Shown: positions 29,316-50,391 of the stretch, one piece after another | Layout of the letters: every line of letters starts with the position of its first letter | How positions within the stretch are numbered: position 1 is the first letter of the stretch | Assembly: GCA_963702435.1 (NCBI GenBank) | Contig: CAVPCR010000005.1 | Location: 145,721 to 209,720, forward strand | Direction: 5' to 3' | From: Candidatus Eiseniibacteriota bacterium | GTDB taxonomy: Bacteria > Eisenbacteria > RBG-16-71-46 > CAVPCR01 | DNA length: 64,000 nt | The notes under the pieces: generated by a model | Seen by the model: the letters and a program-made list of their open reading frames with translations, nothing else | Database searches by the model: none | What the model was told of the DNA's origin: nothing | Program-made: the position numbers and the translations under genes

Positions 29316-29768
29316 GTGAGTCACGGCATCTCACGCGCCGCGCAGTACGCGGTGCGCACCCTCGTCCACCTCGCGCTCGAGCGTGATGCAGCGGCCTCCC
29401 CGGTCAGGGACATCGCGGAGGCCGAGGGGATTCCGCCGCACTTCCTGGCCAAGCTCGTCGGGAAGCTGGCGCGGGCCGGCCTCGTCGATGCGTTCAAAGG
29501 CCCCGGGGGAGGCATCCGCCTGGCCAAGCCCCCGACCCGGATCAAGCTCATGCAGGTGATCGAGGCCGTGGACGGCCCCGCATTCCTGTCCGCGTGCTTT
29601 CTCGGACTTCGCTCGTGCTCGGACGAACAGCCCTGCGCCATGCATGAGAACTGGAAGGCGCTGCGCACGCGGCTGGCCGCCGACTTCGATCGGATCACGA
29701 TCGCCGAGCTCGCCGCGTCGGCGCGACGAAACCCGCCGGCCGCGGGCGGATCCGGCGCGGCGCGGTAG
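29316..29768 (+). CDS. Rrf2-family (IscR/NsrR-like) transcriptional regulator with a three-Cys Fe-S ligand pattern
   Basis: N-terminal wHTH ([13 protein letters not shown]...[27 protein letters not shown]) and a C-x6-C-x5-C cluster ([14 protein letters not shown]). Confidence 0.8.
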
Positions 29769-29862
29769 AGCCCACGTTCCGGTTGCCGCCGCGCCCCCGA
29801 GGTCCTACCATCGACCCCTTGCCCACCACGACCCCGTTCACCCTGTTCGACTTCACTCTACG

Positions 29863-35475
<5,613 letters not shown>

Positions 35476-35571: not shown

Positions 35572-36741
35572 GTGGATTTCGACTTCGCGCCCGAACAGGA
35601 GCTCTTCCGCAAGACCCTCCGGCAGTTCGCCGAGGAGGAGATTCGCCCCCACGTCCGCGAGTGGGATGAGCACCAGCACTTCCCGCGCGACGTGTTCAAG
35701 AAGCTCGGCGACCTCGGGATCATGGGCATCATCTTTCCCGAGGACTACGGCGGTTCCGGCCTCGGATACATCGACTACGTGCTCGCGGTCGAGGAGCTGT
35801 CGCGAGTGGACGGTTCGGTCGGGATCACGGTCGCGGCGCACAACTCGCTGTGCACGAACGCCATCTTCGAGGCGGGCACCGAGGAACAGAAGCGCCGCTA
35901 CATCCCGAAGCTCGCGAGCGGCGAGTGGATCGGCTCGTGGAGCCTGACCGAGCCGACCGCGGGCTCCGATTCCGGCGGCACCAAGACCGTGGCGCGCCGG
36001 GACGGGGACACCTACATCCTGAACGGCTCGAAGACCTTCGCCACGCAGGGCACGCAGTGCGACGTGGCCGTCGTCTACGCCACGATCGATCCCAAGCTCG
36101 GGAAGAAGGGCATCACCGCCTTCATCATCGAGAAGGGCACGCCCGGCTTCCGGGCGGGGAAGAAGGAGGACAAGCTCGGGCTGCGCGCCTCCGACACCGC
36201 CGAGCTCGTCATGCAGGACTGCGTGGTGCCGGCTGCCAATCGCCTCGGCGCAGAGGGCGAGGGCTTCCACGACGCGATGAAGATCCTCGACGGCGGGCGC
36301 ATCTCGATCGCCGCGCTCGCGCTCGGCATGGCCGAAGGCGCCTTCGCGGCGGCGCTCGCCTACTCGAAGGAGCGCGAGCAGTTCGGGCAGCCGATCGCCC
36401 AGTTCCAGGCCATCCAGAACATGCTGGCCGACATGGCCAAGGAGATCGACGCCGCCCGTCTCCTCACCTACCACGCGGCGTGGATGAAGGATCGCGGCAT
36501 GCGCGTGACGCGGCACTCGGCGATGGCCAAGCTCTACGCGTCCGAAGTGGGCGTGCGGGCAACCAACGATGCGATCCAGATCTTCGGCGGCTACGGTTAC
36601 ACCAAGGACTTCCCGGTCGAGAAGTTCTACCGCGACATGAAGCTGTGCACGATCGGCGAGGGCACGTCGGAGATCCAGCGCCTGGTGATCGCGCGCGAGC
36701 TATTGAAGGAGTCGGCGGCGGCGGGAGCCGGAGCGCGGTAG
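35572..36741 (+). CDS. acyl-CoA dehydrogenase (short/medium-chain type)
   Basis: Full-length ACAD fold signatures ([32 protein letters not shown], catalytic-base region). GTG start with a GAGGAG RBS. Confidence 0.85.
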
Positions 36742-38314
36742 GGCGGCGTTCGCGATCCCGCGGGATCGTGCGGGCGCCGGCGCGGGCGAACGCGAACGCA
36801 CGGGTCGAGGGGGCGAACGCACGGGTCGAGGGGGCGAACGCACGGGTCGAGGGGGCGTTCCGAGTCGCGCGGGGGGAGCGGGCGCCGGCCGGCTCAAACA
36901 GTCCTCGCCCGCCCGCGAGCCTCAGTCCCGGACTACCACGTCCGGCGGTGTGGGCGGGCTGCGGAACTCGCCGGCCTTCGCGCCCGCTCCCCCCACGCTC
37001 CGCGACCGGTCCCATGGATGCACCCGCTCGACGATCCCGCGGGATCGCCACATAGGGCACGTGCTCTTCCCGCACTTCCCAGGCGCCACGCCCCCACGTC
37101 GATCGTCGCTCGTCGGCTGGGGTTTCGGCGTAGGCGCGGTCGAAGTCGTCCTCGGTCGGGTCGTCGGCATCGGCGAAGGCGGCCTTCTCGGCGGCCCACT
37201 TCTGCTGCCACCACCAGAGCATGTCCGCCGTCACCTCGCCGGTGTCTCCCAGGGTCCAGCCGGCGCGGGCCGTGAACACCAGGTCGCCGGAGGCGTCGTG
37301 GTTGATCACGAGCTTCCCCTCGTGCGCCTGCCGGTGATGCCACCAGCAGAGATAGATCAGGTTCTTCACCTGGTGCCGGCCGCCCTCCGCCCACGGCTTC
37401 AGGTGATGCAGATCCAGCCACAGCCGCCGCTTGCATCCCGGCACCCGGCAGCACCGCCCATCCCTGACCCCCACCGCCCGCCGCGTCACCTCGCTCACCG
37501 TGCGCGTCCCCCGACTCAGCATCTCCTCGCGCTGCAGGCGGAGCGTGCAGTCACAGAGGAGCCGCGAGAGGACTTCGGGCTTGAGCGGTGCCGCCCCGTG
37601 GGAGCTCTCCGTCCACGCCGTGCCATCCTCATCGAGGTGGACGACCACCGTGTACCGCTCCGCTGTCTTCACCTCGCCGGCGGGTCCGGAGAGGAAGTCG
37701 GCCGCCAGGAAGACGAGCGACTCGGCGGAGGAGAGCGTTGCTCCGGCCTGGCGGCGGACTTCGTCGAGCGCCCGCGTCACGAGCTCCATCTCCTCCGCCG
37801 GCAGATCCACCACCATCCGCGTGGTCGCCGCGTTCAAGGCGCTCGTCATCAGCCGCCGCGCCGGCGGCGCGCCCTTCTTGCTCCGCGCCACCTGGGTCTC
37901 CAGCTCCTCCGCGGTCAGCTTGAGTGCCCGCTCCAGCCACGCCGCTTCGGTCTCCGGCGTCACCACCCGCACCAATGTGCGCACCTTGGCGTAGGAGAGC
38001 TGGCCCGTAGCGAACGCCTGATCGATGAGGGGGAGTTCGGCGAGCGCCTGCGCCACCCGGATCCGCTGGCGCGCGGCGATGCGGCTCACCCCGCAGATGA
38101 GCTCGAGGTAGTGGGCCATGGTCGGGCAGCCGTACTCCTCGTAGCCCTCGCACTCCTCCATGCGGCGGATGAGGAGGGTGAGCCGGTGGAGATTCCAGTT
38201 CGCGAAGGCCGCGTTTCTGAGGAACTCGGCATGGAGGGCGGCGGGGGTGGACTCCCGGCCGGGGTCGGCGCCCGGCTCGGCCATCGGGTCGGCGGCGGCG
38301 GCGCTGGCGGTCAT
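36464..38314 (-). CDS. DUF222 + HNH endonuclease (13E12-repeat-type) protein. 3' end uncertain: about 150 low-complexity codons run through repeats and antisense to acdA.
   Basis: HNH motif [46 protein letters not shown]-terminal DUF222-like region. The first in-frame stop is only at 36464. The tail is Ala/Arg/Pro-rich. Confidence 0.65.
36752..36771. repeat. 20-bp element GCGATCCCGCGGGATCGTGC containing the 14-bp perfect palindrome GATCCCGCGGGATC (left copy)
   Basis: Exact copy of 38424-38443, same orientation. Further palindrome copies at 37034-37047 (exact) and 38757-38768 (partial). Confidence 0.8.
36793..36855. repeat. 21-bp tandem repeat x3 (cgaacgcacgggtcgaggggg)
   Basis: Three perfect contiguous copies plus a partial one. 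Translated as APSTRAF x3 in the HNH ORF tail. Confidence 0.85.
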
Positions 38315-38423
38315 GGCGAACTCCTTGGTGGAAAAGCCGTTAGGTGGTTCGAGGTCGCCTGTCGCCAGAGACTATATGAATGTATAGTTAAGTCAAGGAG
38401 TTTTTTCAGGGCGGGGAGCTCAG

Positions 38424-38443
38424 GCGATCCCGCGGGATCGTGC
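38424..38443. repeat. 20-bp element GCGATCCCGCGGGATCGTGC (right copy) with the palindrome
   Basis: Identical to 36752-36771. Together the two copies bracket the HNH gene. Confidence 0.8.
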
Positions 38444-38580
38444 CTGCCGGGGGTGGGTACGCGCAGCGCGTGAGGCGGACGGGCGCAGAGGCCGGCGACT
38501 TCTGCAGCCCGCCCTCAGTGCTGGGAGTGGCGAATCTCCGACGCAGGTCGCGGGCGGGCGAAGACCGGAGCCGGCCGGCG

Positions 38581-38724
38581 CCCGCCGCCGAGCGCGACCC
38601 CGCCGCCGAGCGCGACCCCGCCGCCGAGCGCGACCCCGCCGCCGAGCGCGACCGCGCCGCCGAGGCGCGACCCCGCCGCCGGGTGCGACCGCGCCCCCAG
38701 GCGCGACCCCGCCCCCAGGCGCGC
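38581..38724. repeat. 18-bp tandem repeat (cccgccgccgagcgcgac), 4 perfect + about 4 degenerate copies
   Basis: Seen directly. Lies between the HNH gene and pdxR. Confidence 0.85.
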
Positions 38725-38943
38725 CGCCTCCGCTCGGGGGCGCTCCGCCCCCGGGCGATCCCGCGGGAGCGTTGTCACGCCGCCTTCAATCCAGATTGGA
38801 CGAGCCAATCTTCGTGCGCGCGACGCGGCCATCTCGCGCCGATCTCCTGGTTCCCACGCCAAGAACTCGCTTGACGCCCCGCCCACCGCCGCCGACAATC
38901 TCCATGCAGCGAAGCCCCAGCCAATCGATCATTGGACCATCCA

Positions 38944-40536
38944 ATGCACATCGACCTCGATCGCACACAGAGCGAGCCCGTTTACCGACAGATCGCCCTC
39001 CATCTGCGGGCGATGATCGAGTCGGGGGCCCTTCCGGCCGGCACCCGCCTGCCGCCGTCGCGCGACCTCGCGCGCACGCTCGGCGTGAACCGTGCCACGG
39101 TGACCGCGGCCTACGACGCCCTCGGCACCCTCGGCGCGGTCGAGGCCACGGTCGGGCGCGGCACCTTCGTGCGATCGCAGGCGGCGCCCATGGCTGGGGC
39201 GACGCTCGCCGCCTCGCCCGCGATCGCCGGCGCCCGCCTCAGCGCTCGAGGGAGCGACGCACCCGATACCGCCGCGGCTCCCGCCGCCTCGAGCCCCGCC
39301 ACCTTCTCGCGCGCGATCGATGAGCTGCTCCGTTATCCCGCGCGCGAGGCCGTGGCGAGCGATCACCCCCACGCGGTCGACTTCGCAGCGCTCTACCCGG
39401 ACGAGAGCCTCTTCCCGGTCACCACCTTCCGGCGCCTCATGGCCGAGGTCCTCGCCCAGCGCGGGCGCGAGCTCCTCCAGTACTCCGCTCCGGAGGGCGA
39501 TCCCGATCTTCGCGCCTACATCGCCGGCGAGCTCAGTCGGGCCGGCGTCCAGGTCGCGCCCGACGACATCCTCATCGTGAACGGGGCCCAGCAGGGGCTC
39601 GATCTCCTCCTCCGCACGTTCGTCGATCCGGGCGACCCGGTCGTCGTCGAGTCGCCGACCTACTGGAGCGTGCTCCCCGCGCTCGGCTTCTACCGGGCCG
39701 AGGTGATCGAGGTGCCGATGACGCCGCACGGCATGGACACCGACGCCCTCGCCGCCGTCCTCGCCACGCGCCGGCCGAAGCTCATCTACACGATGCCCAA
39801 CTTCCAGAATCCGACCGGCATCACGATGAACCTCGAAACGCGCCGGCGGCTCACCGATCTCGCGCGCCGCCATGCGGTGCCCGTCATCGAGGACGACTAC
39901 GAGAAGGATCTCCGCCTTCGCGGCGACGGCCTGCCGAGCCTGAAGGCGATCGCGCCCGATGCGCTCATCATGCATCTCGGCACCTTCTCGAAGGGGCTCT
40001 TTCCCGGCGTGCGCCTCGGCTGGATCGCCGCTCCTCCCGCGGTCCGCGAGCGGCTCGTCCTCGCCAAGCGCTACGCCGATCTGCACACGAGCGCGCTCGC
40101 GCAGGCGGTGATCGCCGCCTTCTGCCGCGGCGGGCACTATGCGCGACACATCGCCAAGCTCCATCGCGTCTACCGCGATCGCCGCGCGGCGCTTCTCGCC
40201 GCGCTCGAGCGCCACTTCCCGGCGGAGGCGAGCTGGACGCGTCCCGACGGCGGCTACGCGCTGTGGGTCACACTGCCGCACGAGATTCACGTCCGGGATC
40301 TCCTGGCCGAGGCCCGCGCCGAGGGCGTGGTCTTCACGCCGGGCCACTACTTCTTCAATAGCGACCGGGGTGACAACTGCCTCCGGCTCTCGATCGCGCG
40401 CGCCGATTGCGATGCGATCGAGCGCGGCGGCCAGATCCTCGGCCGGATCATCAAGCGACGGCTTCGCGCCGGCGCCGGCGCCGGCCCCGACGACCGGGTC
40501 CGGCGGGCGGCCGCCCAGGCGCTGCCGCACTTGTAG
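38944..40536 (+). CDS. pdxR: MocR/GntR-family regulator with a fused aminotransferase (PLP) domain, PdxR-like
   Basis: N-terminal GntR HTH (PVYRQIALHLRAMIESGALPAGTRLPPSRDLARTLGVNRATV) and a class-I aminotransferase fold domain. Immediately upstream of pdxS/pdxT. An alternative TTG start lies at 38932. Confidence 0.75.
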   Translation: MHIDLDRTQSEPVYRQIALHLRAMIESGALPAGTRLPPSRDLARTLGVNRATVTAAYDALGTLGAVEATVGRGTFVRSQAAPMAGATLAASPAIAGARLSARGSDAPDTAAAPAASSPATFSRAIDELLRYPAREAVASDHPHAVDFAALYPDESLFPVTTFRRLMAEVLAQRGRELLQYSAPEGDPDLRAYIAGELSRAGVQVAPDDILIVNGAQQGLDLLLRTFVDPGDPVVVESPTYWSVLPALGFYRAEVIEVPMTPHGMDTDALAAVLATRRPKLIYTMPNFQNPTGITMNLETRRRLTDLARRHAVPVIEDDYEKDLRLRGDGLPSLKAIAPDALIMHLGTFSKGLFPGVRLGWIAAPPAVRERLVLAKRYADLHTSALAQAVIAAFCRGGHYARHIAKLHRVYRDRRAALLAALERHFPAEASWTRPDGGYALWVTLPHEIHVRDLLAEARAEGVVFTPGHYFFNSDRGDNCLRLSIARADCDAIERGGQILGRIIKRRLRAGAGAGPDDRVRRAAAQALPHL

Positions 40537-40583
40537 CGCTCCGTCATCCGTAGCCCGTCATCCTTAGCAAGGAGGTGAACGTC

Positions 40584-41466
<883 letters not shown>

Positions 41467-41468
<2 letters not shown>

Positions 41469-41621
41469 GACCGGCCCGCAGTCCCGGTAGGACCGGCCCG
41501 CAGTCCCGGCAGGACCGGCCCGCAGTCCTGGCAGGACCGGCCCGCAGTCCTGGCAGGACCGGCCGGCAGTCCTGGCAGGACCGGCCGGCAGTCCCTGGTA
41601 GGACCGGCCCGCAGTCCCGGT
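41467..41621. repeat. 22-bp tandem repeat x7 (aggaccggcccgcagtcccggt and variants) in the pdxS-pdxT intergenic spacer
   Basis: Seven contiguous copies with 1-2 nt variants. The first copy overlaps the pdxS stop codon. Confidence 0.9.
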
Positions 41622-41651: not shown

Positions 41652-42356
41652 ATGGCTCCACTCATCGGTCTGCTCGCCATGCAGGGCGACTACGGCGCGC
41701 ACCGTGCCATGCTCGCGCGGCTGGGCGCGCGCACGCGTTCGGTGCGCGCGGCCGCCGACCTCGAGGACCTGGCCGGGCTCGTCATCCCCGGCGGCGAATC
41801 GACGACCATGCTGCGCCTTCTCGATCGCAACGGGCTCCGCGCGGGGCTGGCCGCCTTCACCGCCGCGCGTCCGACCTTCGGCACCTGCGCCGGGCTCATC
41901 CTCCTCGCCCGCGAAGTGACGAACCCGGCCCAGGACAGCCTCGCCGTCCTGGACGTGGCGGTCGAGCGGAACGCCTACGGCCGGCAGATCGACAGCTTCG
42001 TCGGCCAGATCCGCGCCGCGGCGCTCGGCGGCGTGGTCGAGGGGGTGTTCATCCGGGCGCCGCGCATCACGCGGCTCGGCGGCGGCGTGGAAGTCCTCGG
42101 CCGGCTGGACCCGGCCGTCCGGCCCTCGTCCTCGACCGGCGACGGCGGCTGGACGGGCGACGGCGGCGCGACCGGCGAGGGCGGCGCGGCCGCACCGGAG
42201 GGCGAGGCCGTCCTCGTCCGCGAAGGACATCTCCTCGCCGCCACGTTCCATCCCGAGCTGACCGCGGATCCGCGCATCCACCGCTTCTTCCTGGACGAGA
42301 TCGTCGGCGCCGGAAGCACCGCCCGCCCGGCGCGACCCGGCGGCAGTCCGTCTTGA
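41652..42356 (+). CDS. pdxT: pyridoxal 5'-phosphate synthase, glutaminase subunit PdxT, with a Gly/Asp-rich insertion
   Basis: LAMQGDYGAHRAML...VIPGGESTTM...GTCAGLILLA...ATFHPELT (class-I glutamine amidotransferase triad context). Insertion of about 35 aa (SSSTGDGGWTGDGGATGEGGAAAPEGE). Confidence 0.85.
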   Translation: MAPLIGLLAMQGDYGAHRAMLARLGARTRSVRAAADLEDLAGLVIPGGESTTMLRLLDRNGLRAGLAAFTAARPTFGTCAGLILLAREVTNPAQDSLAVLDVAVERNAYGRQIDSFVGQIRAAALGGVVEGVFIRAPRITRLGGGVEVLGRLDPAVRPSSSTGDGGWTGDGGATGEGGAAAPEGEAVLVREGHLLAATFHPELTADPRIHRFFLDEIVGAGSTARPARPGGSPS

Positions 42357-46543: not shown

Positions 46544-48316
46544 TCAGGCGCGCGCGATCGCGCGGGCCACGATCTCCTGCGCCGCGCTCTGGATCGCGCG
46601 CAGATGATCCGCGCCCCGGAAGCTCTCGGCGTAGATCTTGTAAGTATCCTCGGTGCCCGAGGGGCGGGCCGCGAACCAGCCGCTCGCGGCCATCACCTTG
46701 AGGCCCCCGATCGGCTCGCCGTTCCCGGGCGCGGTGGTGAGCATGGCGATGATCGGCTCGCCGGCGAGCTCCGTCGCCGCGATCTGATCGGGCGCGAGCC
46801 GCGCGAGGATCGCTTTCTCGGCCGCCGTCGCCGGCGCGTCGATCCGCGCGTAGACCGGCTCGCCGAGCTCTGCCGCGAGCGCGCGGTAGAGCTCGCCCGG
46901 ATCGCGTCCGGTCCGCGCGGTCATCTCGGCCGCGAGAAGGCCCATCACCATCCCGTCCTTGTCGGTCGTCCACACCGTGCCGTCCCGCCGGAGGAAGGAG
47001 GCGCCCGCGCTCTCCTCCCCGGCGAACCCGAGGGTCCCGGCGGCGAGCCCCGGCACGAACCACTTGAAGCCGACCGGCACCTCGACCAGCGCGCGCCCGA
47101 GCTGCGCTGCGGCCCGGTCGATGAGCACGCTCGAGACCACCGTCTTCCCCACCCCCGCACCCGCCGGGAAGCCGGGACGATGGCGGAAGAGATAGCGGAC
47201 CGCGACCGCCAGGAAGTGATTGGGGTTCAGGAGCCCCGAGCTCTGGGTCACGATGCCGTGCCGGTCGTGGTCGGTGTCGTTGGCGAAGGCGACTGCGAAG
47301 CAGTCCCGGAGCGCGACGAGCGGCGCCATGGCGTACGGCGACGAGCAGTCCATGCGGATCTTCCCGTCCCAGTCGAGCGCCATGAAGCGGAAGGTCGGAT
47401 CGACGCCCGGGTTCACGACCTCGATCGCGATCCTGTACCGCTCGGCGATCGGGCCCCAATAGGCGACCCCGGCGCCGCCGAGCGGATCCACGCCGATCCG
47501 GATGCCGGCGCCCCGGATCGCGTCCATGTCGATCGCCGCCCCGAGATCGCCGGCGTAGCCGCCGATGTAATCGTGCGGCGTCGCGGCCTTCAGCGCTCGT
47601 TCGAACGGCGTGCGCCGGACACCGGCGAGGCCGGCGGCGAGGAGCGCGTTCGCCTCCTTCTCGATCCACGCGGTGACGGGCGTCTCGGCCGGACCGCCAT
47701 GGGGCGGGTTGTACTTGATCCCGCCGTCGGCGGGGGGGTTGTGCGACGGCGTGATCACGATGCCGTCGGCGAGCCCCTGCGTGCGCCCGCGATTGTGGGT
47801 GAGGATCGCGTGCGAGATGACCGGCGTCGGCGTGTAGCCCCGATCGCGATCCACGTGCACGGACACGTCGTTCGCGACGAGCACCTCGAGCGCGGTCGCG
47901 AAGGCGGGCTCGGCGAGCGCGTGCGTGTCCATGCCGAGGAAAAGAGGCCCCGTGATGCCCTGCGCGCGGCGGTACCGGCACACGGCCTCGGCCACCGCCA
48001 GGATGTGCGCCTCGTTGAAGGAGTTCGTGAGCGATGAGCCGCGATGCCCCGAAGTGCCGAAGGCCACGCGCTCGGCGGGCCGCGCCGGATCGGGGCGACC
48101 CGTGTAGTACGCGGTCACCAGGCGCGGCACGTTGACGAGCGCGGAGGCCGGCGCCGGCTGCCCGGCGAGCGGATGGAGGCCGGGCCCGGCGGACGCCGCT
48201 CCGTCCGTCGTGCGGGCTCTCCTGGTGCGGGCTCTCCTGGTGCGGTCTTCCTTCATACGGTCTTCCTTCGTGCGGTCTTCCTTCGTGCGGTCTTCCTTCA
48301 TGCGGTCTTCCTTCAT
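46544..48316 (-). CDS. pgm: phosphoglucomutase (alpha-D-glucose-phosphate specific) with an N-terminal [M/T]KEDR x5 + TRRAR x2 repeat extension
   Basis: [22 protein letters not shown]...[10 protein letters not shown]...[14 protein letters not shown] 48316 with a GGAGG RBS. The start overlaps the glgX stop (ATGA). Confidence 0.85.
48210..48314. repeat. 15-bp tandem repeat x7 (gtgcggtcttccttc and variants) inside the pgm 5' coding region
   Basis: Seen directly. Encodes the KEDR pentapeptide repeats and supplies several in-frame ATGs. Confidence 0.85.
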
Positions 48317-50391
48317 GACGCCTCCGCGACGAGGATCACGAGCCCGCGTCCGACGACCGGCGCGCGCCGCGGGGCGGGGAGCGGGCGGCGCGCCCCCGGC
48401 TCGGAGTAGTCGCCGGGGGCCGCCGCCGCGGTGTCGACCGCGATCCGCCAGGTCGTCGTCGCGGGCGGGGCCGGGACCGCGAACACGACCGCCTCGGTCC
48501 CCGCGTTCGCCAGCAGGCAGAGATCGGATCCGCCGTCCCGGGATGCGCGGACATGCGCGCCGAGCGCGCGTTCCCGATCCCAGGTCGGAGCGCCGCCCGC
48601 CGGATCGAACCACGCCAGCTCCTCCGGCGTGTAGAACGACTCGCGGGCGAGGACGGGGTGGCCGGCCCGGAAGGCGATGAGCCCGCGCACGAAGCGCACG
48701 AGATCGCGATTCGCGGCGCACAGATCCCAGTCGAACCAGGAGATCTCGTTGTCCTGGCAGTAGGCGTTGTTGTTCCCGCGCTGCGTACGCCGGAACTCGT
48801 CACCGCCGAGGAGCATGGGCACACCCCGCGAAAAGAAGAGGGTGGCCAGCATGTTCCTGATCTGCCGGCGGCGGACCGCCTCGATCGCCGGATCGGCGGT
48901 CGGCCCTTCCTGGCCGTAGTTGGCACCCAGGTCGTGGTCGCTGCCGTCCCGCCCATTCTCGCTGTTGGCCCGGTTGTGCTTCCGCTCGTAGCTCACCAGA
49001 TCATTGAGCGTGAAGCCGTCGTGGGAGGTGACGAAGTTGATCGAGTTGATCGTGCGCTCGCCGGTGTGCTGGTACAGGTCGGCGCTCCCGGCGAGCCGCG
49101 TAGCGAAGGCGCCGCACATGCCGGGGTCGCCGCGCCAGAAGCGCCGCATGTCGTCGCGATAGTGTCCGTTCCACTCCGACCAGCGCGTGCCCGGGAAGCT
49201 CCCCACCTGATAGGCGCCGCCGGCATCCCAGGCCTCGGCGATGAGCTTCAGGTCCTGGAGCACCGCCGACTCGGCGATCGCCTCGAGGAGCGGCGGATTC
49301 GGGTGGAGCCGCCCGTCCTGGTCCCGGCCGAGCACCGAGGCCAGGTCGAAGCGGAAACCGTCCACGTGCATCTCGAGCGCCCAGTATCTGAGGCAGTCCA
49401 TGATGAAGGCACGGACGACCGGATGGTTGCAGTTGACCGTGTTCCCGCAGCCCGAGAAGTTCTGGTAGCGGCGCCGGTCGCCGTCCGCGAGCAGGTAGAA
49501 GATGCGGTTCATGAGCCCGCGGAAGTGGAGCGTGGGGCCGCGCTCGTCGCCCTCCGCCGTGTGATTGAAGACGACATCGAGGATCACCTCGATGCCGGCC
49601 TTGTGCAGCTCGCGCACCATGGTCTTGAACTCGGCGACCTGGGCGCCGGGACCCGAATCGGCGGCGTAGCCGGCGGCGGGCGCGAAGAAGCCGACCGAGC
49701 TGTAGCCCCAGTAGTTCCGGAGCCGCTGTCCGCTCTCCGGATCGGTGAGCGTGAGCTCCCGCGGGTTGAACTCGGCGACCGGCATGAGCTCGACGCTCTT
49801 CACCCCGAGCTCTTTGAGATAGGGGATCTTCGCAACGAGGCCACGGAAGGTGCCGGGTTGCGCGACCGCGGACGACGGATGCATGGTGAAACCGCGCACG
49901 TGCATCTCGTAGATCACGGTCCGCGACCACGGGTGGCGGAGCGGACGATCGCCCTGCCAGTCGAAGTGCGGATCGATGACCAGGCTCCGCGCGCGCCAGC
50001 GCGCGTCGGCGGCGTCGTGCCCGTCGTTCCACCAGGCGGGTGCGAGCGCCTGCGCGTACGGATCGAGGAGGACCTGGCGCCGGTCGAAACGATGGCCGTC
50101 CGCGGGGTCGTCCGGACCGTCGACCCGGTAGGCGTAGGCCTGCCCCGCGGCGACTCCGGCCACCCACACGTGCCACATGTCCCCGGTCCGGTTCCGGACC
50201 GGATCGAGCTCGATCGTGACCGCCGGCTCGGCGGCAGCGGGATCGGCGTAGAGGAGGAGCCAGACGCGGGTCGCATGCCGGCTCGCGAGCGCGAAATTGG
50301 CGCCGCCATCCACGAGATGCGCGCCCGGCGGCAACGGGAATCCGGTGTCGGTGCGCGGCGCGGCGCCGTTGGTTGCAGAGTCGCCGCTCAT
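48313..50391 (-). CDS. glgX: glycogen debranching enzyme GlgX (GH13 isoamylase-type)
   Basis: N-terminal CBM48-like region, then GH13 catalytic motifs ([30 protein letters not shown]...). Confidence 0.85.

Follow-up and report, generated by a model that had tools for sequence, protein, structure and literature searches.

The window analysed here, a 64,000-nucleotide stretch of contig CAVPCR010000005.1 from a Candidatus Eiseniibacteriota bacterium, contains a 2.0-kb insertion (36752–38774) between the genes acdA and pdxR whose only gene encodes a DUF222-HNH endonuclease of the 13E12 type. Very probably, this insertion is a selfish or mobile cassette bounded by palindromes that belong to the element itself. 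A fuller reading, on which we are evenly divided, is that the cassette is a selfish nuclease element of the SOS type and that its border palindromes are bound by its own ParB-like domain.

The insertion is flanked on the left by acdA (acyl-CoA dehydrogenase; 35572–36741, plus strand; Pfam Acyl-CoA_dh_N/M/1) and on the right by pdxR (MocR/GntR-aminotransferase regulator; 38932–40536, plus strand; Pfam GntR and Aminotran_1_2), both of which lie outside the element. An earlier note, made from the letters of the window alone, had proposed that this junction be compared in related genomes, and the comparison uncovered two empty sites and a decayed remnant. Gene order uvrA2–acdA–pdxR–pdxS is kept in the three relatives L216, L217 and L218, with PdxR identities to the window of 86% (L216, the closest), 72% (L217) and 74% (L218). 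In L217 and L218, which keep the order uvrA2–acdA–pdxR–pdxS–pdxT, the gap between acdA and pdxR measures only 156 and 222 bp, respectively. These junctions contain no HNH gene and neither a copy nor a half-copy of the palindrome, only PdxR-box-like repeats, and the CAATCCAGATTGGAC... motifs found past 38774 in the window correspond to the intergenic DNA of these empty sites. In L216, the acdA stop codon is followed by 19 nt, ACGATCCCGCGGGATCGT, an HNH remnant of ~700 bp that has lost two internal segments, the family promoter, GCGATCCCGCGGAATCGT and native DNA. By BLAST, L216 aligns from acdA through the outer-left palindrome of the window as a single high-scoring segment pair (90.5%); a further aligned stretch reaches as far as the inner-right palindrome, and the alignment picks up once more at the pdxR promoter. 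L216 is the sole relative with an HNH gene at this site, and it has the repeats as well. One locus is therefore seen in three states: intact in the window, decayed in L216 and empty in L217 and L218.

The same genome appears to carry a second copy of the element. The PdxR of the window is 100% identical to database protein P0053, and P0053, the best HNH homologue (P0001) and a NurA-family protein (P0173) are each recorded on a 956,750-bp contig. We reached the second copy via the neighbour P0173 and a short Logan contig (L223), which encodes P0173 exactly and starts with the end of a hairpin module, one 21-bp unit and the palindrome ACGATCCCGCGGGATCGT, followed by DNA for the P0001 tail. Since L223 joins the P0001 tail to P0173, and P0173 is not encoded in the 64-kb window, a second element copy lies beside the NurA-like gene (site A); we infer two copies within one genome, apparently on the same contig. 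The NurA-like gene belongs to a family of double-strand-break repair nucleases (PF09376 in homologues). At site A (L173 1–1430, L093 914–1757, L223 194–1264), the element is situated immediately upstream of this gene, and the HNH ORF (open reading frame) reads into the gene's upstream region. L001, L092, L093 and L173 are metagenome contigs with site-A copies from relatives (~88% nucleotide identity).

These copies define the borders of the element. Homology between the window and site A (L001, L092, L093, L223) stops at the outer-left palindrome, beyond which lie acdA in the window and the NurA-like gene at site A. At the opposite end, L092 and L216 are homologous to the window as far as the inner-right palindrome. 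The cores of the two same-genome copies are 97.9% identical (residues 24–410), and each is 94–95% identical to the relatives' site-A copies, a difference that suggests a recent copying or gene-conversion event inside this genome. The empty junctions, the palindrome-bounded remnant, the second copy and the homology that stops at the outer palindrome together bear out the selfish HNH element with terminal repeats that the earlier note had suspected.

The 20-bp repeats reported in that note (GCGATCCCGCGGGATCGTGC; 36752–36771 and 38424–38443) are indeed identical, and a search at up to three mismatches gives five matches, all within 36750–38774, compared with 0.13 expected from shuffles. Their 14-bp palindromic core occurs exactly at 36754, 37033 and 38426, and a copy with one mismatch is present at 38757–38770. 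Both the middle and the partial copy had been noticed before, the former one position too far to the right (37034), and the perfect palindrome is in fact 16 bp long rather than 14 (CGATCCCGCGGGATCG; copies at 36753, 37032 and 38425). An 18-mer, GCGATCCCGCGGGATCGT, is common to the three full copies (36752, 37031 in inverted orientation, and 38424); in the degenerate copy at 38755, GGGAGC replaces GGGATC. Outside the block, the window holds no further GCGATCCCGCGGGATCGT and a single 14-bp near-match (one mismatch) at 1752. This near-match (1752–1765, GATCCCGCGGGAGC) has the same letters as the degenerate outer-right copy, and we judge it to be due to chance because it lies inside the coding sequence of a pirin-like protein (FTLPIPREHTAFAYVFEGEG; LPIPREH).

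Alignment of 36878–37049 with the reverse complement of 38423–38585 gives ~77–80% identity, so that the flanks of the gene are long inverted repeats, a feature that had previously been overlooked. As the flanks are inverted copies, the layout of the element is symmetric: palindrome, minisatellite, hairpin module, palindrome, promoter plus HNH gene, palindrome, hairpin module, minisatellite, palindrome. The outer-left palindrome (GCGATCCCGCGGGATCGTGC, 36752–36771; perfect over 16 bp at 36753–36768) forms the left end of the insertion, 10 nt past the acdA stop codon. It is followed by a minisatellite of 3.1 units of 21 bp (unit GCGAACGCACGGGTCGAGGGG; 36792–36857; 100% matches by the program TRF), the left accessory hairpin module (IR-L; ~150 nt, 36878–37030, minus strand), identified by an inverted-repeat scan and alignment as the inverted copy of 38444–38585, and the inner-left palindrome (ACGATCCCGCGGGATCGC, 37031–37048). 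The latter lies directly past the end of the conserved HNH protein, a position kept in L092, L093, L090 and L082. On the other side of the gene, the inner-right palindrome (GCGATCCCGCGGGATCGTGC, 38424–38443) is found 27 nt upstream of the −35 element and ~110 nt upstream of the ATG, a position kept in L001, L092, L090 and L216. Next come the right accessory hairpin module (IR-R; 38444–38585, plus strand), which is the inverted copy of IR-L, a minisatellite of 7.3 units of 18 bp (unit CCCGCCGCCGAGCGCGAC; 38581–38713; TRF, 90% matches) and the outer-right degenerate palindrome (GCGATCCCGCGGGAGCGTTG, 38755–38774). This last palindrome is the right end of the insertion and is followed by native pdxR upstream DNA with PdxR-box-like repeats. 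Three minisatellites had been claimed for the region, the 18-bp array with eight units; we find these two and no convincing third, the other TRF rows being weak (2–3 copies).

Module content differs between copies of the element. L216 consists of palindrome, gene and palindrome only. L092 has the downstream hairpin module and appears to lack the upstream one, with just 26 nt of contig beyond the palindrome, and L001 has the upstream module and a partly deleted downstream one. The 21-bp array likewise varies in copy number, with three units in the window, one each in the same-genome site-A copy and in L001, and none in L092 and L093. Each ~150-nt module can be drawn as a long imperfect hairpin with invariant arms and a variable centre (five copies), and RNAalifold on these five copies yields no informative covariation. 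The palindrome itself could fold as a stem of 6–7 bp with a CGCG loop. A scan of 36000–39500 at E ≤ 1 finds no Rfam family, and a terminator scan of the region calls no T-run terminator.

The HNH gene is located on the minus strand in an ORF of 616 aa (36464–38314) that extends 278 nt antisense into acdA, in agreement with the ~280 nt given earlier. Its conserved DUF222-HNH core (residues 1–421; 37052–38314, minus strand) comprises a predicted ParB/Noc-like domain at residues ~24–145 (37880–38245) and the HNH motif at residues ~285–335 (37310–37462). The conserved protein stops at about residue 421, directly before the inner-left palindrome, and the remaining ~195 codons (36464–37051, minus strand) form a non-conserved read-through tail that translates palindromes, hairpin module, minisatellite and antisense acdA. 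All close homologues read through the palindrome into unrelated sequence in different frames, with the palindrome translated as IPRDR or RSRGI. Since the read-through is common to close homologues, the long tail is a family trait and not a sequencing defect; the suspicion cast on the 3′ end of the gene thus finds an explanation and is not borne out as a fault.

A 425-aa core query matches PF02720 (DUF222) with 34.0 bits (cut-off 24.4), as do 31 of the 38 homologues in the alignment; PF02720 is not listed when the 616-aa ORF with its low-complexity tail serves as query. The HNH match (PF01844) has 21.4 bits, exactly at the cut-off. Catalytic His/Asn and zinc Cys residues are conserved: C289, C294, H303, H304, N318, C323, H326/H327 and H331 vary little or not at all among homologues. 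In addition, dN/dS against close copies is 0.11–0.24, indicating that the protein is under purifying selection. Among solved structures, the HNH domains of IscB, McrA and a group II intron maturase come closest, and a hidden Markov model search of PDB sequences returns HNH domains only. Pfam and NCBIfam scans reveal no DDE, HUH, serine or tyrosine recombinase or transposase domain, only DUF222 and HNH. PADLOC reports nothing meaningful, and the only NCBIfam match is a sub-threshold one to the IscB HNH domain. An RNA-guided, IscB-like reading was considered and dropped, as the protein lacks a RuvC domain and L216, L082 and L090 do without the hairpin module. We also note a weak, non-significant match (E 0.06) of the HNH domain (37310–37450) to Pfam RecA_dep_nuc, the P1 Ref family of RecA-dependent HNH nucleases from phage, which deserves mention in view of the SOS link.

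The association between palindrome and gene extends far beyond this organism. A protein scan of a genome collection returned at least 80 homologue loci, which are 28–58% identical (mostly 28–38%); the family-wide counts given in the following refer to those listed. The listed loci span Woeseiaceae, Steroidobacteraceae, Burkholderiales, Myxococcota, Solirubrobacterales, Gaiellales and an Eisenbacteria metagenome-assembled genome (MAG). Beside homologues of 55–58% identity, the same 16-mer is kept in unrelated contexts, namely L082 (cox operon) and L090 (FlgD_ig protein gene/PAS kinase gene). In L090, one palindrome precedes the ATG by ~110 nt and two, spaced at a 39-bp period, lie downstream; L082 and its relatives have three, all downstream and with the same period, and L091 contains two copies of CGATTCCGCGGAATCG, a symmetric double change from the 16-mer. 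A perfect palindrome of the form N≥4-CCGCGG-N≥4 is situated beside the gene in 32 of the 80 loci. There are 34 such palindromes in 85 kb near the gene compared with 16 in 1,138 kb elsewhere, a ~28-fold higher density, and those elsewhere are mostly plain GC repeats.

Across the family, the centre of the palindrome is constant and the arms co-vary (GTTTC/GAAAC, GTTCC/GGAAC, CCCTC/GAGGG, GTTGC/GCAAC, GGTTC/GAACC), as illustrated by (GAC)GTTTCCGCGGAAAC(GTC), GTTCCCGCGGGAAC, CCCTCCGCGGAGGG, GTTGCCGCGGCAAC and GGTTCCGCGGAACC. In syntenic orthologues, the palindrome is a conserved island in an otherwise unalignable 3′ region. Its reading frame differs in related genes (VSAET or FRGN), and it lies before or after the C-terminal W.GE..DY motif; the use of different frames indicates that conservation acts at the DNA level. 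Most palindromes of distant homologues are found in the 3′ part of the gene. In actinobacterial loci, the palindrome is instead upstream, beside the promoter (L076, L080 and a plasmid of Rhodococcus erythropolis KB1). This plasmid (plas2, from a cultured strain) has CGTCCCCGCGGGGACG upstream of its DUF222-HNH gene, which is the only homologue in the plasmid collection.

What might recognise the palindromes is suggested by a structure prediction. The AlphaFold model of the full core has a pLDDT of 78.6, and that of the N-terminal domain alone (residues 20–215) one of 92.6. When the domain model is compared with the PDB using Foldseek, the top 12 matches are all DNA-binding domains of ParB, Spo0J and Noc (probability 0.98–1.00), followed by noise, and the full-core model gives the same result. 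The Noc DNA-binding domain on its binding site NBS (6y93_A) superimposes with an rmsd of 2.4 Å over 105 columns (TM 0.72 on the target); other ParB-type matches are 4umk (Spo0J–parS), 6s6h (ParB DNA-binding domain–parS) and 7ng0 (rmsd 2.2 Å). There is no ParBc match in Pfam, and the model consists of a long helix and then a helix-turn-helix bundle without the N-terminal ParB fold (ParB/Srx CTPase). An hhalign comparison with an alignment of four annotated ParB proteins matches in the helix-turn-helix region only, at a non-significant E of 0.11; it pairs ...LP...GQLSY with GKSRPHIANYVRLLQLP...NELSM, and the longer aligned ParB stretch is GKSRPHIANYVRLLQLPEEIQTLISTNELSM. Pfam HTH_ParB matches weakly in 2 of 38 members (E 0.13).

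The canonical sites of these proteins are TGTTTCACGTGAAACA for parS and ATTTCCCGGGAAAT for NBS. Many family palindromes are parS-like (e.g., GTTTCCGCGGAAAC), and the commonest, CGTTTCCGCGGAAACG, has a GTTTC half-site in the parS register and differs from parS mainly at the dyad. In one clade of more than 50% identity, the start of the putative recognition helix tracks the half-site, with SRI paired with GATCC, TRI with GATTC and TGV with GTTTC. With moderate confidence, we consider that the palindromes are the sites of the cassette's own ParB-like domain.

The gene has its own expression signals (38321–38396, minus strand), with a ribosome-binding site AAGGAG at 38321–38326, a −10 element TAGTCT at 38369–38374 and a −35 element TTGACT at 38391–38396, separated by a 16-nt spacer. 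This block was read from the sequence and is conserved in L001, L092, L090, L082 and L216; a consensus promoter scan missed it because the −10 element matches the consensus at only three of six positions. Within the promoter spacer lies a candidate operator, CTATACATTCATATAG (CTAT-N8-ATAG, 16 bp; 38372–38387, minus strand), a motif that occurs once in the window compared with 0.01 expected.

Canonical LexA boxes are present in 23 of the homologue loci. Sixteen loci have the box CTGT-N8-ACAG at the gene start; this motif occurs 25 times in 1.31 Mb, and 16 of these occurrences lie in start zones that together make up 23.7 kb. Seven actinobacterial loci have GAAC-N4-GTTC at the gene start, and the Rhodococcus gene has TCGAACgtacATTCGA. 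The window counterpart of these boxes is only the CTAT-N8-ATAG in the promoter spacer. In Mycobacterium tuberculosis, LexA peaks have been mapped by chromatin immunoprecipitation sequencing at six 13E12 genes (PMC3381160), with which the LexA boxes at the homologues' gene starts agree. By analogy, the gene in the window organism may be under SOS control as well. The Rhodococcus plasmid gene (L224 1230–1260) additionally has a TGTCGGTA-N8-TATCAT motif, which we take to resemble the mycobacterial RecA-independent (PafBC) promoter.

Taken as an SOS-type selfish nuclease cassette, the element might work as follows. Its sole gene would encode a two-part enzyme with an N-terminal domain of the ParB/Spo0J/Noc fold and a C-terminal HNH nuclease. 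The 16–18-bp palindromes at the cassette ends and at every module junction follow the parS/NBS format, with 8-bp half-sites round a dyad and a CCGCGG centre, and would most likely be docking sites for the ParB-like domain as a dimer. Transcription would start from the cassette's own sigma-70-like promoter, in which CTAT-N8-ATAG sits where homologues from other phyla have a LexA box, and DNA damage would lift the repression. The nuclease would then load at the border palindromes and nick or cut there, and RecA-dependent repair would copy the cassette between chromosome copies and paralogous sites in the style of homing or gene conversion and, on rare occasions, into new sites. Without such renewal, copies would decay. 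The extra units of palindrome, hairpin, minisatellite and palindrome, which have opposite orientations on the two sides, could be accessory units bounded by the same symmetric site. Because HNH enzymes, to our knowledge, do not transfer strands, border breaks or nicks followed by RecA-dependent copying would be the most economical route, and such copying would fit both SOS timing and homogenised copies.

A different explanation would be that the palindromes are generic host hairpins of the REP (repetitive extragenic palindrome) or terminator type, unrelated to the HNH protein, and that the gene merely lies between two of them. The stem with a CGCG loop that the palindrome could form would fit this, and so would the outcome of a metagenome scan with RCGATCCCGCGGGATCGY, which returned at least 80 loci. 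Among the matches listed, 3–5 of 80 lie beside a DUF222-HNH gene (L114, L120, L173) and ~76 of 80 have no HNH gene, often with extended GC-rich stems and T-runs. Many of the HNH-less matches are single copies inside coding sequences, in low-GC contigs, or cores of longer GC-rich stems followed by T-runs; such matches are expected when a huge collection is searched for a GC-rich palindrome, and many look like chance or terminators. A scan of viral contigs for the 18-mer gave two isolated matches, which is chance level. The abundant generic repeat that the earlier note had set against a selfish element is thus encountered in part, in these metagenome contigs, but there are no dispersed copies in the 64-kb window or in the ~59 kb flanks of L082, L090 and L091. 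The palindrome is also absent from the empty sites, no T-run terminator is called here, and generic hairpins would explain neither the ~28-fold enrichment of CCGCGG palindromes beside homologues across phyla nor an invariant centre with co-varying arms. We therefore regard this explanation as very improbable.

Two HNH-less loci are described here in their own right. In L130 (1–700; Ga0105347_1072594, 1.26 kb), units of ~126 bp contain seven copies of the parS-like GTGTTCCACGTGGAACAC interleaved with three copies of CGATCCCGCGGGATCG, an arrangement reminiscent of a centromere, with ParB-type sites of two kinds. In L107 (4309–5271), two exact palindromes 946 bp apart bracket an ORF for a 168-aa membrane protein between convergent genes, with no HNH gene nearby; they may bound a passenger cassette, or may be no more than two terminators.

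A classical insertion sequence with the 20-mers as target-site duplication (the earlier note had considered target duplication, too) would account for identical direct repeats that bracket the gene and for the long inverted repeats on both sides. Such an element is extremely unlikely here. None of the recombinase domains (DDE, HUH, serine or tyrosine) is found in the protein, and the sequences compared contradict a target-site duplication produced by a classical transposase: the same repeat bounds copies at other, unrelated sites and in other hosts, it is absent from the empty sites, and no direct repeat is found outside the palindromes (flanks GGCGGCGTTC versus TCACGCCGCC). Homing into solitary palindromes would make the flanking repeats a rebuilt target rather than sites carried by the element alone: a lone copy, such as a terminator-like hairpin, would be cut and then repaired from a palindrome-flanked cassette, with the two half-sites as sole homology, so that a full palindrome is restored on either side. 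A symmetric target predicts modules in both orientations in a palindrome–X–palindrome–Y–palindrome series, as observed; tandem palindrome arrays with a 39-bp period downstream of homologues, the lone and arrayed HNH-less copies in metagenomes and the location of the outer-left palindrome at the expected position of the acdA terminator, 10 nt past the stop codon, are in line with it too. Nevertheless, both empty sites lack a palindrome, 64 kb contain no copy elsewhere, and many HNH-less matches look like chance (coding sequences, low-GC contigs), so that we find this route quite unlikely. Finally, the protein may be a domesticated SOS repair or recombination nuclease encoded by a stable host gene, with the palindromes as operators for self-repression or insulation, as with KorB, and no role in mobility. 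Many distant homologues are syntenic orthologues with conserved flanks, the protein is under purifying selection, LexA boxes occur, and an upstream palindrome lies 27 nt from the −35 element here and beside the promoter in Rhodococcus, L076 and L080. In this lineage, however, the block is clearly inserted, with presence, absence and decay states and at least two copies, and homology between the copies ends at the palindromes, which makes pure domestication a doubtful account. Autoregulation and selfishness do not exclude each other.

Several points weigh against the SOS-type selfish cassette with its own ParB-type sites. The many distant homologues that are syntenic, apparently stable genes show that mobility is not common to the whole family, and autoregulation may be the main function of the palindrome. 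The relatives with empty sites have only 72–74% PdxR identity, and the site before insertion may have differed from theirs. Of the features that characterise homing genes, presence/absence polymorphism and degenerate copies at an orthologous site are seen here; a recognition site that spans the insertion point of the empty allele is not, as the empty sites (from fairly distant relatives) have no palindrome. With respect to the ParB-like domain, the Foldseek E-values are only 0.06–0.2 with a predicted model as query, homology to ParB at the sequence level is significant neither by hhalign nor by Pfam, and the co-variation between helix residues and half-site is confounded by phylogeny. The palindrome is not exclusive to the cassette, since the 18-mer also occurs in HNH-less contigs, in some of them in small arrays (L099, L100, L151, L130). 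CTAT-N8-ATAG does not correspond to a known LexA motif and is absent from the SOS genes in the window. Lastly, HNH nucleases hydrolyse DNA and, as far as we know, have no strand-transfer activity, which leaves movement to new sites without a demonstrated route.

Some features of the neighbourhood lie outside the element. Downstream of pdxR are pdxS (40575–41468) and pdxT (41655–42308), separated by a 22-bp minisatellite with seven units (41467–41620); the same gap is only ~27–44 nt in L217 and L218. Further 15-bp arrays are found at 48210–48317. The arrays at these two places indicate that the genome expands intergenic minisatellites generally, beyond the HNH cassette. Directly upstream of acdA, an ORF of 1943 aa (29644–35475) contains duplicated UvrA-like modules (a double UvrA paralogue) and keeps this position in L216, L217 and L218.

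13E12/DUF222 repeats have been on record since the first M. tuberculosis genome and are LexA-bound, induced by DNA damage and located at inversion breakpoints; we know of no established mechanism for this repeat family. The present locus offers a testable anatomy for it, with a ParB-like reader, an HNH cutter, a cognate-looking palindrome kept across several phyla, and one locus in occupied, empty and decayed states. Should the domain prove to bind the palindrome, the ParB DNA-binding module would have been put to a new use here, joined to a nuclease on a selfish cassette, and the specificity of a nuclease family could be read from the adjacent DNA. The R. erythropolis KB1 plasmid plas2, as a cultured, plasmid-borne example of palindrome plus DUF222-HNH gene, could be used for such tests. 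We also put forward, tentatively and with more doubt than confidence, that DUF222-HNH (13E12) elements are an unrecognised class of mobile cassettes with a ParB-derived site reader and an HNH cutter. Their symmetric parS-like palindromes would serve as borders and, at the same time, as sites of insertion or recombination. Autonomous cassettes (with HNH) and non-autonomous ones (hairpin/minisatellite) would be stacked in either direction, and gene conversion triggered by the SOS response would renew the copies. If true, such a class would also account for the REP13E12 repeats and for the inversion hotspots in M. tuberculosis.

The element can be compared with several known systems. Like REP/REPIN–RAYT systems, it has a single gene flanked by short palindromes in both orientations, and its long-hairpin module resembles a REPIN; unlike RAYT, its protein combines an HNH nuclease with a ParB-like domain and has no HUH/Y1 transposase domain, and no dispersed copies are present in the ~120 kb examined. 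P1 Ref, which is RecA-dependent and SOS-linked, is likewise an HNH nuclease tied to the DNA-damage response, and the weak RecA_dep_nuc match (E 0.06) is to its family. There is no significant similarity between the two, and Ref has neither a sequence-specific DNA-binding domain nor flanking sites. With free-standing HNH homing endonuclease genes, the element shares an HNH nuclease as sole gene, occupied, empty and decayed states at one locus and copies homogenised within a genome. It differs from them in that the repeated site is intact on both sides rather than split, is absent from empty alleles, and unrelated loci are occupied (sites A and B).

ParB–parS, Noc–NBS and KorB–OB have palindromic sites of 13–16 bp, often in or beside their own gene, and the modelled domain finds its only matches in the DNA-binding domains of ParB, Spo0J and Noc. 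The GTTTC half-site of parS recurs in the same register in many family palindromes, and as with the tandem sopC arrays next to sopB of F, the family sites lie in or beside the gene, sometimes in tandem 39-bp units. In contrast to ParB, the protein has no ParB/Srx CTPase domain, ParA partner or C-terminal ParB dimerisation domain, and carries an HNH nuclease as partner domain; at the dyad centre, CCGCGG takes the place of the CACGTG of parS, and the relation is not significant at the sequence level. ParB-CTPase–HNH fusions have been noted (PMC12704722), but these involve the CTPase domain, i.e., the other ParB domain. DUF222 itself appears in a published list as a domain of unknown function that accompanies HNH (PMC3592412), and in the literature searched, neither flanking CCGCGG palindromes nor a ParB-like DNA-binding domain is described for DUF222/13E12.

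The closest counterpart is the REP13E12/13E12 family of M. tuberculosis and other Actinobacteria, which has the same architecture of DUF222 (PF02720) and mostly HNH. REP13E12 is known as a repeat family (Gordon et al. 1999, as cited in PMC10589994), and both it and the present element are multi-copy within a genome, here with two inferred copies. The element described here comes from an uncultured high-GC bacterium outside the Actinobacteria, whose nearest named relative among the matches listed is a Candidatus Eisenbacteria MAG (L002). The known family is under DNA-damage/LexA control (PMC3381160), which corresponds to the LexA boxes in the homologues, and the recombination between 13E12 copies reported there (PMC13157036) compares with the 97.9% identity of the two copies in this genome.

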